A DNA stretch of 64,000 bases from a virus, in IMG/VR virus record IMGVR_UViG_3300006065_000002; one strand, written 5' to 3'. Below, one piece after another: positions 46,558 to 54,309 of the stretch (the first letter of the stretch is position 1; each line of letters begins with the position of its first letter). The position numbers and the translations under genes were made by a program. The notes under the pieces were generated by a model that searched no databases, was not told the origin of the DNA, and worked only from the letters and a program-made list of their open reading frames with translations.

Positions 46558-47106
46558 TTAAGAATAAATATTGTTTGAATCACTAAATTTAGTATTTTTA
46601 ATTGATTTAATTTGGTTTGGTTTTGTTGCAATTATCACATTTTCCTTTTCCCCAAATCTATCATGTTTTAATATTGCACCATCATTTGATGTGTTTATAT
46701 ATTCACCACCAACATTTACTTTATAAGTTGGGTTTCTTAAATTTATAAAAACTGCTAATTCTTTATCACCATAATTTGAATAACCGTACCTATCATCAGA
46801 AAAGTAGAATAAATTACCTCCAATAAATCCTTTCTTATAACTACCCTTCGTATTATCAAATTCTTCAAAATCAGCAAAAGTTCTGTGATAAACAACTAAA
46901 GGTTCGCCATTTTCATCAACTACTTTACTTGAACTATTTGGATTTTTCTCCCAATCACCAAACCAATCTTTAAACTCAGGAGTTCTAACCAATTTATACA
47001 ATTCTGATGTTAAATTGCTTTTATTACCATTTGGTGCTAATAGCGTTTCATTCTGTTCATTCAAATATTTACGTATAGTAGTTTTTATAAATTTTTTCAA
47101 TTCCAT
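46558..47106 (-). CDS. Leader-tagged ADP-ribosyltransferase-like (ART-PolyVal-type) protein
   Basis: MELKKFIKTTIRKYLNE; FKDWFGDW, VVDENGEPLVVYHRT, FYFS, VFINLRNP. Confidence 0.7.
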   Translation of the reverse strand: MELKKFIKTTIRKYLNEQNETLLAPNGNKSNLTSELYKLVRTPEFKDWFGDWEKNPNSSSKVVDENGEPLVVYHRTFADFEEFDNTKGSYKKGFIGGNLFYFSDDRYGYSNYGDKELAVFINLRNPTYKVNVGGEYINTSNDGAILKHDRFGEKENVIIATKPNQIKSIKNTKFSDSNNIYS

Positions 47107-47222
47107 ATTATTAAATAGTTTTATTATATATAAATATTCAAATTTTAAATTTCCTTCCCACAAAAATAAAACAAAAAGGTTTCGTTCTTCGTAGGTAGTT
47201 TTTTAGTAGATTTCTGCACAGC

Positions 47223-47316
47223 ATATAACAAGGTGTATAAGAAAGTTTGCTATCAGCAGTTGTGGTAATCTGAAAGTTCATCTAAGCAAACCTTCTCATA
47301 CACCCAACCGTTGGCA
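47223..47316 (-). repeat. attC-like site (major family)
   Basis: GGTGTATAAGAAAGTTTGCT / AGCAAACCTTCTCATACACC. Confidence 0.85.
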
Positions 47317-47322
47317 GCAATG

Positions 47323-47589
47323 TTAAAGACGCTCAATCTCATCTTTGACAAGTTGCCAATAATCAGACGTGTAATTTTCAGTTACAAAACCGAACTTAGT
47401 TAGAACATTGTATTCTGACTTTTCAGCTTCTTCAACGGCTATCTTAGCACATTGCTTTGCGATAAATACATTCATATCTTCTAAATTGTAATTGTATCTA
47501 TCAGCGCCTCTTACTTCTGGGAGATACTTTTGTACTAACTCGTTTGCTTTTTCTTGTGGTGACATATATTTAATTTTAAAGTTTGACAA
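47323..47589 (-). CDS. Cassette hypothetical phage protein
   Basis: MSPQEKANELV...AKQCAKIAVEE...YWQLVKDEIERL. Confidence 0.75.
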   Translation of the reverse strand: MSNFKIKYMSPQEKANELVQKYLPEVRGADRYNYNLEDMNVFIAKQCAKIAVEEAEKSEYNVLTKFGFVTENYTSDYWQLVKDEIERL

Positions 47590-47604
47590 TCAAAAAAACA
47601 CTGC

Positions 47605-47736
47605 TGCCAACACACGTTTGGCAAAAGTGGCGGTGCAGTTCTCCGATCGACATTTACTGCTATATTCAACATTGGTTCTCCGCGTCAATATTTGTGGTCA
47701 AAATCGCCACCTTCGCCAAGCGTGGGGACGTTATGC
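47605..47736 (-). repeat. attC-like site
   Basis: CACGTTTGGC..GTGGCG / CGCCAC..GCCAAGCGTG. Confidence 0.8.
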
Positions 47737-47865
47737 TATCTCTCGAATATTCAATTGACTTATCAACTTCTTCAAGTTTTATTCTTAGTTGGTCTTTTTC
47801 TGTTAAAATTTTCATTTTAAATATGTTTTAAATTAATAATAAACAAAACGTTATAAGTAATATTT

Positions 47866-48090
47866 TTAAACTACATCGTGTATCACTTCCAATATAGGTT
47901 TTTGGAAACAATTTGAAAACCATTCTATCCTCTTCAAACTATGTTCATATGTTTTTGTTGGTATTGTCATTAATCGTGAGTCATGTACTGAATTCCATCC
48001 ATAATTACATGCTTTCTTATTATCACACAACCACTCTGGATGGAATTCTGTGTTATTTTCAAATTGTTTTTCTACTATTCTAAATTTCAT
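47866..48090 (-). CDS. Cassette hypothetical protein
   Basis: 74 aa, matched termini at 47850 and 48121. Confidence 0.65.
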   Translation of the reverse strand: MKFRIVEKQFENNTEFHPEWLCDNKKACNYGWNSVHDSRLMTIPTKTYEHSLKRIEWFSNCFQKPILEVIHDVV

Positions 48091-48114
48091 ATCGTTAAGT
48101 TTAAAAATACATAC

Positions 48115-48185
48115 TTATAACAACAAATATAAGAAATAAATTTTGATTTTTCTATTTTTTTTGTAAATATTTGTGACCGTTATAT
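48115..48185 (-). repeat. attC-like site (short)
   Basis: ACAAATAT / ATATTTGT-GACC-GTT. Confidence 0.6.
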
Positions 48186-51500: not shown

Positions 51501-51532
51501 TTCAAATTTTAATTTCTCACCCACAAAACAGC

Positions 51533-51627
51533 ATATAACAAGGTGTATAAGAAAGTTTGCTATCAGCAGTTGTGGTAATTTGAAAATTTATCGTAAGCAA
51601 ACCTTCTCATACACCCAACCGTTATGT
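51533..51627 (-). repeat. attC-like site (major family)
   Basis: Same arms as the site at 47223. Confidence 0.85.
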
Positions 51628-51697
51628 GTAAGTGTTCCATTCATCGTTATAATCAACATTTCGGTTGAAAATTTTAAAATAAAAATTCCACCCACTT

Positions 51698-52180
51698 TTA
51701 ATATACTTGGTTATATGGTTTATTAAAACCATCAATAAGTCTTTTCAAAATATCCCTTCCAGAACCACCAGTTGGGTCATTTTTTAATAAAATTTTATAA
51801 TATCTTTTTAATGAATCTATATCGTTTTTTAAAAAAGCGATTGTTCCCATTTGATAATTTGGTTCAATTGAATCTCTAACATTGTTTTTGGACATATATT
51901 TAACTGCATTATCATAATCATTAATGAAAGCATATAATTGTCCAATATGCCATAATATTGCACCAATTTGATAATCTTCTAATTCTGATTTATTGGAATT
52001 AAGATAACTTAACATATATTTAATTGCTTCCTTTTCTTGACCACTATGTACTAATTTTCTCCACACACTTTTATTAATATCATCAAATTCATCATAACTA
52101 ATGTTATAATCATAGATAGATGAATTTTCATTCAGAAATTCTCTTATTGTGGTTTTAATAAACTGTTTCAAATCTTTCAT
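51698..52180 (-). CDS. Leader-tagged TPR-like helical protein (cassette)
   Basis: MKDLKQFIKTTIREFLNE; WHIGQLYAFINDYDNAVKY. Confidence 0.7.
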   Translation of the reverse strand: MKDLKQFIKTTIREFLNENSSIYDYNISYDEFDDINKSVWRKLVHSGQEKEAIKYMLSYLNSNKSELEDYQIGAILWHIGQLYAFINDYDNAVKYMSKNNVRDSIEPNYQMGTIAFLKNDIDSLKRYYKILLKNDPTGGSGRDILKRLIDGFNKPYNQVY

Positions 52181-52385
52181 TATTTTCCTTTATATGTAAA
52201 TACATTAAAATAATAAAAACCCACCCTTCTTTTTCTTTTAAAATTTTTGCTCGGTTCTCCGATTGAAGTTTATTGGTAGTAATCCACACCTACACATAAC
52301 AAGGTGTATAAGAAAGTTTGCTATCATCAATCGTCAGTAGTTCTGTGCATTATACGTTCTAATTAGCATTTTGTTTCAAAAACTT

Positions 52386-52922
52386 TTAAAAATTTTCCAC
52401 TCCTAAATTAATAATTTTAGCTGATTTTCCATTATAATATGGTTCTGGCACAATATATTCAATATCGTGTTTTCCATATACTTGGTTGGTAATTACAATC
52501 AAATCCAAACCTCGCCATTCTTCTGCTAAATTTTCAGCATCTTCTCGTTCCATATCACCATATTCTACCAAATCATCAATAATATATGATGTATCACCAC
52601 GCAATAAAGCATCAAATGCTTCTTGTATTGCTAAACTATCAAATCTACTTTTACTTAAATCAAAAATTGCTGGATTTTGTGAAATAATTTTTACTTTATA
52701 AACATAATCACCCCAAGATGTTTGTGGTATATTACTAAAAAACATACCATCTATTCTCGTTGATGAATTTGGTTTTAATTCTATCTTATCAAAATTAAAG
52801 TCATCAATTTTTGAATTAGTTGAGTGGTATGCTATAAATTCTTTATTGATATTAACTTGTTCATTCAAAAACTCTCTAATTGTGGTAGCAATAAATTTGC
52901 GTAGTTTCATATCTTTGTTCAT
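52386..52922 (-). CDS. Leader-tagged ART-like protein (cassette)
   Basis: KLRKFIATTIREFLNE; AYHST, GMFFS, WGDYVYKV. Confidence 0.6.
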   Translation of the reverse strand: MNKDMKLRKFIATTIREFLNEQVNINKEFIAYHSTNSKIDDFNFDKIELKPNSSTRIDGMFFSNIPQTSWGDYVYKVKIISQNPAIFDLSKSRFDSLAIQEAFDALLRGDTSYIIDDLVEYGDMEREDAENLAEEWRGLDLIVITNQVYGKHDIEYIVPEPYYNGKSAKIINLGVENF

Positions 52923-53031
52923 AGTTTTTTAGTTTATATATAAATATTCAATTTTAAAATTCCCACAGCACATTTTTAAAAGTTTTTGTTCAATGTTTCA
53001 ATCAAGTACTTATTGTAATTCACCGTACTGG

Positions 53032-53125
53032 TTATAACAAGGTGTATAAGAAAGTTTGCTATAAAGTTCAGTTGTAATTTGAAAGTTCATCTAAGCAAAC
53101 CTTCTCATACACCCAACCGTTAGCA
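53032..53125 (-). repeat. attC-like site (major family)
   Basis: Same arms as the site at 47223. Confidence 0.85.
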
Positions 53126-53601
53126 ACACTTAACTTGTCAAGTACCGTTTGAAATTGTTTATCTGTCATTTTCGTTTAATTTACCGTACAAATATAAGTA
53201 TTATTTTTGTATTCTCCAAATGTTTTTACAAATATTATTTACTAACTTTCAACATTCTGCAAGTGTCACTTCTCATATACGCAAACCGTTATGTGTAAGT
53301 GTTCCATTCATCGTTCTAATCAACATTTCGGTTGAAAATTTTAAAAGAAAAATCCAACGCACTTATTTTTTTTAATCTACTATACACTTCTGGTCTTTTT
53401 GACAAATATAATCTAACACTTTCAATACTATCCAAAGTTTCTGAATTAACTCTCACTTTATTTGAAGTGTCATATAATTCTAAAAATTTTTGATACACTT
53501 CATCTGGTGTATTTAGTTTTTCTAATTTTAAATACTTGTTAATTTCTTTACCATTTAATTTAATATCATCAAAAAAAACACGTTCAATGATTAAGAAATT
53601 A

Positions 53602-54309
53602 TTAAGTTTGCCAACGACAATCAGGACATTTCCAGTAAGGTTCAAACTCATCCCTACCCATTAAGCAATCAGGGCAAACCGATAATCTTTTTGTTTTATT
53701 TTTTCCAACGCTTTTTAAAAATGTTGATAATTTCACATCAGTTTCAATTAAATTCATATTTTCATCATAAACATCCCAAATCCATTCTTTCATATTTTTG
53801 GTATCAATTTTCACATTTACAATACAAACCACATCAATACCTTTTGTTACATCAAAAACTACTTGAAATTGTTTATCAGCAGTATTGTAAACTTTACAAG
53901 AATCATTAGATTTAAAAACAATACCCCAACCACCATATAAAAAATCTTTTTGGTATCTACTATCAATCTTTTTGTTGGTTAAATCGAATGCAAAACCAAA
54001 ATTACCATCAACAATTTCTTCCTTACTTTTTCTTGTTTTAGTAAATGAAGAATAATATGCACCAACCCCACGAAAACCATTTTGTAAAATAGATATTATA
54101 TTTTCTTTGGTTGTTGAATGAAATAACAACGTGTTTGTTGGTAATTTTATTGCTGAATTTGCTTTGTATGAAAATCCTCTCTGTGGAGTTTTTTCCAAAT
54201 TATTTACAACATTAACAAATTCATCAATTGTGTTTATTCTCGTAATATCTTTTTTTGAAACACTTTCTTTTAACATTTTTTCTTTTAAGGTGTCGATATA
54301 TTTTCTCAT
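53602..54309 (-). CDS. ART-like protein (cassette), chimeric C-terminus
   Basis: LLFHSTT...ILQNGF; overlaps a headless ORF at 53316-53651. Confidence 0.5.
   Translation of the reverse strand: MRKYIDTLKEKMLKESVSKKDITRINTIDEFVNVVNNLEKTPQRGFSYKANSAIKLPTNTLLFHSTTKENIISILQNGFRGVGAYYSSFTKTRKSKEEIVDGNFGFAFDLTNKKIDSRYQKDFLYGGWGIVFKSNDSCKVYNTADKQFQVVFDVTKGIDVVCIVNVKIDTKNMKEWIWDVYDENMNLIETDVKLSTFLKSVGKNKTKRLSVCPDCLMGRDEFEPYWKCPDCRWQT

Follow-up and report, generated by a model that had tools for sequence, protein, structure and literature searches.

We analysed a 64,000-nucleotide stretch of DNA from an uncultured giant phage (IMG/VR virus record IMGVR_UViG_3300006065_000002; this whole stretch is called the window below), in which an array of short genes between 46.5 and 54.3 kb, on the minus strand and directly beyond a tRNA cluster, encodes mostly unrelated proteins that begin with nearly the same short N-terminal peptide, the leader. 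The array genes follow each other in series, with a conserved intergenic unit ahead of each. The window DNA, from a source contig of 94.7 kb, has a G+C content of 25% and contains 17 tRNA genes (including one tRNA(CUA)), a tmRNA gene, a Ro60-like gene, and genes for a Dda-like helicase, sugar-modifying enzymes and a methyltransferase. The strand of the array also holds early-type genes (tRNAs, the methyltransferase and the helicase).

An earlier note on this DNA had claimed near-identical leaders on five array genes and on one outlier, and a six-frame motif scan together with the translations confirmed it: the leader is found on genes 46558, 48260 (frameshifted), 50242, 51698 and 52386 (genes are named by their first position) and on the outlier 31099, all six on the minus strand (Table 1). 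It is 17–18 residues long and has the form M(E/K)L(R/K)KFI(A/K)TTIR(E/K)YLNE or MKDLKQ(F/Y)IKTTIREF(L/V)NE. A hidden Markov model (HMM) of the leader run over the window found no copy beyond those listed in the table. The note had also described a looser version at 53602, which is fair: this protein starts with MRKYIDTLKEKMLKES, and because remnants of the leader (e.g. IREVLNEQ and IIKTTLND) are seen in its orthologues, most of which keep (I/L)-x-E near residues 15–28, its N-terminus can be read as a decayed leader. That the leaders are fused to unrelated domains holds for most of the genes, the exception being 46558 and 52386, which are distantly related to each other.

In 48260, one T is absent from a TTT run near 48816–48818 when compared with intact homologues, which are 215 amino acids (a.a.) long, have the leader and show 97% identity; for the copy in the window this means either a pseudogene or an assembly error in the homopolymer. 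We considered whether the nearby tRNA(CUA) could rescue 48260 by amber suppression and rejected this, as the leader frame has many more stops and the body of the protein is in another frame.

Most of these genes were also said to have a sequence motif of their own, and this agrees with what we found. The exact TATTTATA core lies 10–25 nt upstream of 46558, 50242, 52386, 53602 and 31099 (five out of seven genes), and one-off variants of it precede the other two, 48260 and 51698. In a larger set of 94 distinct leader genes collected from related loci (see below), 72 have the TATTTATA core 20–36 nt before the ATG, compared with 102 out of 1170 background ORFs.

Table 1. Leader-tagged genes, promoter-like elements and neighbouring features of the window
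Feature	Position	Strand	Remarks
ART-PolyVal protein, leader-tagged, 182 a.a.	46558..47106	-	Leader 47056-47106, MELKKFIKTTIRKYLNE; Pfam PF18760
Frameshifted leader gene	48260..48906	-	Leader 48856-48906, MELRKFIATTIREYLNE; body 48263-48802, in another frame
Leader-tagged protein without known family, 408 a.a.	50242..51468	-	Leader 51418-51468, MELRKFIATTIREYLNE
Leader-tagged TPR-like protein, 160 a.a.	51698..52180	-	Leader 52127-52180, MKDLKQFIKTTIREFLNE
ART-PolyVal-like protein, leader-tagged	52386..52922	-	Probable start at Met5 (52910); leader 52860-52910, MKLRKFIATTIREFLNE
Probable ART-fold protein, degenerate leader	53602..54309	-	Leader 54262-54309, MRKYIDTLKEKMLKES; C-terminal zinc-ribbon-like extension
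Outlier leader gene, 140 a.a., no family	31099..31521	-	Leader 31468-31521, MKDLKQYIKTTIREFVNE
TATTTATA core of promoter-like element TTTGAATATTTATATATA	47129..47136	-	Conserved upstream of leader genes
Further TATTTATA copy	51493-51500	-	Upstream of 50242
Further TATTTATA copy	52939-52946	-	Upstream of 52386
Further TATTTATA copy	54335-54342	-	Upstream of 53602
Further TATTTATA copy	31532-31539	-	Upstream of 31099
Cassette without leader	49161-49970	-	Between leader genes 48260 and 50242
tRNA with CUA anticodon (amber suppressor)	30977-31049		50 nt from the outlier leader gene
tmRNA gene	28732-29135		
Transposase ORF, full	34726-35952		Within the tRNA cluster; phrog_506, E 8e-118
Cys-rich ORF, 105 a.a.	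45309-45626		Just ahead of the array; by eye resembles a TnpB-type zinc-finger end

Likeness of the leader to the capsid-targeting signal of T4

The gp21 protease of phage T4 cuts at (I/L)-x-E. The propeptide of the T4 internal proteins IPIII and IPII is MKTYQEFIAE↓A and that of IPI is MKTFKEFTSTTTPVSTITE↓A (the arrow marks the cut). Targeting by the T4 capsid-targeting signal (CTS) depends on its residues 4 and 7, and processing on residues 8 and 10 (PMC9026906). The MKDLKQFIKTTIREFLNE form of the leader shares M1, K2, a hydrophobic residue 4, F7 and I/T8 with the T4 CTS; it also shares T10-T11 with IPI, and its L-N-E end is reached at nearly the length of IPI. In terms of a signature, the MKDLKQFI form fits MKxhxxF(I/T) of T4, where h is hydrophobic (cf. 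MKTYQEFI and MKTFKEFT), and the MELRKFIA form corresponds to it with one residue fewer (i.e. offset by one). Every leader form closes with two (I/L)-x-E sites in tandem, I-R-E and L-N-E being nearly invariant. By a post hoc pattern, ^MK.h..F[IT], 31 out of 94 leader ORFs match, whereas the 1738 other ORFs of this DNA give one match. The helical hydrophobic moment of the leader is 1.3–1.7 (shuffled mean: 0.7; the leader is above most shuffles). In both AlphaFold2 (AF2) models that we have (53602 and an intact homologue of 48260), the leader is a low-confidence helix (pLDDT <50), unpacked on the cargo domain.

A protease of the matching type is encoded in genomes linked to the window. The genomes G001 (288 kb) and G002 (310 kb) are complete, have terminal repeats and are linked to the window by cassettes; a Peptidase_S77 protein (gp21-type) is found above the Pfam cut-off in these two as well as in G004 and G005. 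It is also found above the cut-off in G052, a complete genome of 357 kb that encodes the nearest relative of the window helicase in IMG/VR (57% identity). Overall, the S77 protease is seen in 13 out of 52 leader-bearing records; for 47 further carrier fragments the count is nine, where ~17 would be predicted from summed completeness if the protease were universal and the fragments random. The gene order in G001 is protease, acidic scaffold and gp23-like capsid protein. The maturation site of T4 gp23, FLTE↓AEIGG, aligns by BLAST with SSILTE↓ATDA of the G001 major capsid protein, and because LTE↓A of one is aligned with LTE↓A of the other, the L-x-E specificity looks conserved between T4 and G001.

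A ATATTTATA element similar to the one upstream of leader genes precedes the protease and scaffold genes of G001, and in the window an M23 peptidase gene and two large genes without known function also have the ATATTTATA core upstream; such sharing would be compatible with late co-expression of leader genes and head genes. The putative scaffold protein of G001 (L107:15553-17004) is itself extremely acidic, with repeated ELD(S/I)EMGG units, and towards its C-terminus holds QLNE↓S, in which the L-N-E of the leader recurs. A search for a late sigma factor with T4 gp55 as the query gave none in G001 and one weak match in G002 (E 0.002), which was not used.

We consider it fairly probable that the shared N-terminal peptide is a T4-type capsid-targeting, protease-cleaved propeptide. 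The earlier note had suggested as much by pointing to how T4 targets proteins to the head, and among the readings considered this is the best supported, having gained independent support from the T4 CTS likeness, the S77 protease in linked complete genomes and the conserved LTE↓A site. Each cassette would bring a promoter-like element, a 5' untranslated region (UTR) and an amphipathic leader of 17–18 residues fused to a variable cargo; the predicted cargo in the window includes ADP-ribosyltransferases (ARTs) of the ART-PolyVal type, a TPR-like protein and proteins of no known family, and elsewhere also GNAT acetyltransferases and PARP-like proteins. As the head assembles, the leader would dock the cargo on the scaffolding core, and the gp21-type (S77) prohead protease would then cut after IRE and/or LNE, leaving the mature cargo free in the head. 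In the next infection the cargo would exit the head with the DNA and modify host or defence proteins. We infer all of these steps, from docking, cleavage and packaging to injection and enzymatic activity.

An amphipathic helix could also bind some other common partner (e.g. a host membrane, ribosome, RNA polymerase or nucleoid, or a phage chaperone or compartment), in which case the cargo would stay unpackaged. The raised hydrophobic moment of the leader suits such a role, as do the position of the array among early-type genes on the same strand and the lack of an S77 protease match in some leader-bearing records. But the leader is too little hydrophobic for a Sec or Tat signal, and this reading would explain neither the match to the T4 CTS positions nor the double (I/L)-x-E at the end of the leader. 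The position of the array is uninformative: T4 ip genes, too, are in early-strand regions by tRNA genes (ipI is beside the tRNA cluster and on the same strand, the early-gene strand, as the window array is), so the position does not argue against packaging. We regard a partner outside the head as unlikely.

Spread of the leader and the DNA module around it

IMG/VR was searched with a degenerate DNA pattern that encodes F-I-x-T-T-I-R-E-(Y/F)-L-N-E, and 93 stretches matched. There are 102 occurrences in IMG/VR loci, and wherever upstream sequence is present a Met is found at most nine residues upstream, i.e. the motif is always N-terminal. The motif set contains 94 distinct N-termini in ~1 Mb of related loci; because every one of them is at the start of an ORF, the recurrence of the leader is not due to chance. 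The carrier contigs are mostly 5–70% fragments of giant phages, with 22–39% G+C, and the tagged proteins are mostly 90–350 a.a. long. 76 distinct tagged proteins fall into 57 mutually unrelated cargo clusters (no BLAST match between clusters at E below 1e-5). Among 75 tagged proteins compared with Pfam, 11 are assigned to ART-PolyVal, about seven to GNAT families and two to PARP, in addition to single assignments (e.g. ParB_N, Nmad2 and TPR). One leader on 57 unrelated cargo clusters, together with the finding that G001 and G002 have only one cargo gene, plus intergenic/leader units, in common with the array, supports the 'swappable library' that the earlier note had seen in the array.

The hosts of the carrier phages can be narrowed to some extent. 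Among 185,579 species genomes the pattern is present in only 17 stretches, all of them contigs of metagenome-assembled genomes (MAGs), with no isolate genome among them; six out of the 12 MAG bins with the leader are Bacteroidota and the remainder are assorted. The bins outside Bacteroidota may contain mis-binned phage DNA, and the carrier giant phages probably belong with Bacteroidota hosts. The leaderless cassette at 49161-49970 also matches the DNA methyltransferase region of the Flavobacterium siphophage mymlan6 (38.5 kb) at 92% nucleotide identity, in two pieces that make up ~2% of a 9-kb query. We take this match as a clue to the host (Flavobacterium, Baltic Sea), and it appears to be a sign of cassette exchange with unrelated phages. 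The closest cultured relative by capsid protein is Flavobacterium phage immuto (39% identity, covering roughly half of the protein), in which the leader HMM found no leader. The leader strings were not found in a full-text literature search.

Because the search pattern fixes 11 residues of the leader, only the unforced positions are informative about selection, and selection was judged on these only. L3 is at least 90% conserved, with the codons CTA, TTA and TTG; position 4 stays Arg or Lys (codons including AGA, CGC, CGA and CGT) and position 5 is restricted to K, Q or N. Changes at the first codon position among Leu and Arg codons are thus seen at unforced positions. Across 80 distinct DNA versions of the leader the peptide stays the same although many synonymous codons are used, and a relaxed leader HMM run over ~1 Mb of carrier loci gave just 12 further variants; each differs by one or a few substitutions, and some keep the site (e.g. 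YLIE). In the 51698 family the leader changes at about the same rate as the cargo; one member has lost it, but (I/L)-x-E is kept in 12 out of 12. The conserved unforced positions, the small number of variants, and the retention of (I/L)-x-E while the leader drifts in the 51698 family all point to a leader that is functional but modular.

The conservation extends to the DNA ahead of the leader: ~110 nt upstream (TGTGGG..AAATTTAAAATTTGAATATTTATATATAGAATAAAACTATTTAATAATATG) are conserved together with it, inside the window and across dozens of contigs. G001 and G002 have the 52386 gene at 93–94% nucleotide identity to the window and intergenic/leader units at 75–89%, with no other window cargo in common. 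No match to the window helicase was found in either of these two genomes, which share cassettes with the window, so the module is likely to move between distinct backbones; the 52386 cassette appears to be far younger than the phage backbones.

With a module of this kind, the leader might be only a passenger of mobile DNA (promoter, UTR and first codons) that serves cassette capture or shuffling, comparable with the PeSL cassettes of T4-type phages; it would have no targeting role, and its conservation would reflect recent spread and gene conversion. The joint conservation of ~110 nt and leader across contigs, the intergenic/leader units that G001 and G002 share with the window although only one cargo is in common, the crossing of backbones suggested by the unmatched helicase and the loss of the leader in an orthologue are all expected under this explanation. 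Against it are the 80 DNA versions of one peptide, whose synonymous codons include those of Leu and Arg at unconstrained positions, and the scarcity of amino-acid variants. Hitchhiking would moreover leave unexplained both the likeness to the T4 CTS and the (I/L)-x-E kept in drifted orthologues. We therefore think it improbable that the leader is a passenger only; a mobile module and a functional leader do not exclude each other.

A role of the conserved 5' UTR and first codons as RNA (a translation-initiation enhancer or a repressor operator, cf. T4 RegA, in a host group without Shine-Dalgarno initiation) is very improbable: the UTR ...AAAACTATTTAATAATATG is strongly conserved beside the leader and the first codons are A/T-rich, but third codon positions vary freely while the amino acids are fixed, and orthologues keep the hydrophobic spacing and (I/L)-x-E rather than the nucleotide sequence.

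Returning to the reading of the leader as a capsid-targeting propeptide, a more tentative extension is that the ~110-nt unit of promoter, UTR and leader forms a portable 'express-and-package adaptor', which would turn any captured ORF into a virion-delivered effector and, with or without cargo, move horizontally between barely related giant-phage backbones. This is suggested by the cassette shared at 93–94% identity with genomes that have no helicase match, and by the 92% match to mymlan6; we put it forward as possible, and as clearly less secure than the targeting role itself.

Cargo domains of the tagged proteins

ART motifs had been noted in 46558, 52386, 53602 and 48260, and these four fare differently. 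46558 is an ART-PolyVal protein at the level of Pfam: it matches PF18760 with E 9.2e-14 (52.8 bits, the cut-off being 31.2) and keeps the His and Asp (H74 and D142) that are invariant in the alignment of leader-tagged ART-PolyVal proteins. Its relatives in phages, as found by tblastn, are inside crAss-like 'RNAP-associated' and DarB-like giant proteins. 52386 has no Pfam match. Without its leader, it aligns by hhalign with the ART-PolyVal set at a probability of 93.4% (E 2.5e-7), though the alignment covers just 58 columns at the N-terminus. Its Atlas leads are ART-PolyVal and AcrIF11; this protein is probably a relative of ART-PolyVal at the profile level.

53602 shows similarity to the Pfam PARP family under the cut-off (E 0.006). 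Its AF2 model has a pLDDT of 64, and a Foldseek comparison, which the earlier note had proposed as a check on the cargo, gave a best E of 0.013. In VIA the best Z is 6.2, with 96–122 residues aligned (rmsd 2.7–4.1), and the top rows are almost all chains of the ART superfamily, with Scabin, Tpt1, pierisin, TreX and pertussis S1 among the structural neighbours. H64 is invariant in the family. Taken together, these results weakly support an ART fold, which we consider probable. The protein extends for 31 residues (53602-53694) beyond ...FLKSVGK, where all 11 aligned homologues end; this tail has a zinc-ribbon-like CPDC...CPDC and overlaps the start of the next ORF (53316-53651), and it could result from a lost stop codon or from fusion with a small downstream gene.

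For 48260 the same check gave no support for an ART. The AF2 model of an intact homologue has a pLDDT of 82, and its best Foldseek E is 0.63; neither VIA nor VIA-wide returned a chain with Z≥5, and the one ART row has Z 3.2. The rows from Foldseek, VIA and VIA-wide are trivial helical hairpins only, and the protein has no recognisable fold. In the homologues the position of the candidate His holds H or N.

The emphasis on ARTs in the earlier note was too strong for the array as a whole, as the remaining three proteins are not ARTs: 50242 has no significant Pfam match (best E 0.011, under the cut-off) and no PHROG match, 51698 is TPR-like (TPR_8, E 1.8e-5, just under the cut-off), and no family match was found for 31099. 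Nor does the parallel with T4 Alt hold at the level of clades. Iyer et al. (PMC5512222) separated the ART-PolyVal clade from the R-S-E clade of Alt, and the cargo ARTs are of the His-type ART-PolyVal kind, not R-S-E. At E up to 1, Pfam matched none of the seven proteins to an R-S-E toxin family. When profiles of the ART-PolyVal set and of the 53602 family were compared with PDB sequences, neither found a match. The polyvalent proteins in which the ART-PolyVal domain occurs are predicted to be packaged in virions (PMC5512222); since the relatives of 46558 are also inside giant proteins, the types of cargo fit packaging.

Points against packaging, and comparison with known systems

Several observations weigh against a capsid-targeting propeptide. 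No leader was found in cultured phages when a 24-residue leader peptide was searched by tblastn in 50,697 phage records, and G052, the backbone relative of the window that has an S77 protease, is without this leader. Five large leader-bearing records (G039, which has 93 kb and is complete according to CheckV, and G014, G025, G041 and G051) have no S77 match; they have no gp23-type capsid protein either, and TerL-like matches are present in two of them only. From this, either the tie between leader and S77 protease is not universal, or these records are without a head module; the association is good but perhaps not universal. LNE is usually followed by Q or N, compared with Ala at the sites of T4 internal proteins, gp23 and the capsid protein, and Leu in T4 Alt. 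The CTS-like pattern was written after both sequences had been inspected, which makes its statistic post hoc. As for the promoter motif, an 8-mer made up of A and T only, the DNA around it has 75% A+T, and the 'late' label rests on two genes. Because promoter, UTR and leader are conserved as a single DNA module, part of the conservation of the leader could be due to recombination, not function. Finally, no head genes of the window phage were found in the window or in the ~20 kb past position 64000.

This region beyond the window (L131 and L135) has ~40 small ORFs without known function, in addition to R2K_2, an RNA ligase, a radical SAM protein and a weak Gad2 match.

The system at the window is most similar to the internal proteins of T4. 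In both, a short N-terminal propeptide (10–19 a.a. in T4, a putative one of 17–18 a.a. here) is found on unrelated proteins, with an MKxhxxF(I/T) start, an (I/L)-x-E end and a protease of the gp21-type family (here in linked genomes), and in both the genes are in hyperplastic regions near a tRNA cluster and encode diverse, fast-changing cargo. There are differences as well. Here the leader is longer, with IRE and LNE in tandem as candidate sites, and LNE is mostly followed by Q or N where T4 has Ala. T4 packages proteins of ~8–20 kDa, whereas the recognisable cargo here consists of enzyme folds of 90–400 a.a. (ART, GNAT and PARP-like), next to many cargoes without known family, and the many uncultured phages that carry them together have at least 57 cargo clusters. 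The leader here also travels with a conserved promoter/UTR module.

T4 Alt is likewise a phage ART with an N-terminal propeptide, which ends in I-T-E (MELITE↓L), and it is loaded into heads, injected and modifies host proteins (PMC5512222, PMC9026906). Alt, however, is a protein of ~680 a.a. in the R-S-E (Alt/VIP2) clade, whereas the ART cargoes here have 130–240 a.a. and would belong to the His-type ART-PolyVal clade. The polyvalent proteins of Iyer et al. (2017, PMC5512222; P1 DarB-like and crAss-like giant virion proteins) share the ART-PolyVal domain with the cargo and are likewise predicted to be delivered with the DNA against host responses; there, many domains are in one giant polypeptide, whereas here small separate genes have a leader each. 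What would be new compared with the CTS/internal-protein principle of T4 is thus a longer leader with two candidate cut sites, recognisable cargo that is enzymatic, and the exchange of a promoter-UTR-leader module.

If the leader is a capsid-loading signal, the T4 principle of 'expression-packaging-processing' would extend to distant T4-type phages, and the leader would be a second, longer targeting peptide whose function is directly testable in the T4 system. A variable gene array would then be seen turned into an exchangeable set of effectors by a fixed promoter-leader module and, if the portable adaptor is real as well, into an integron-like marketplace for injected proteins. The leader would also allow us to list, from sequence only, what uncultured giant phages of (probably) Bacteroidota deliver with their DNA: a list dominated by ADP-ribosyltransferases, acetyltransferases and dozens of families without known function, which would be prime candidates for host takeover and anti-defence.

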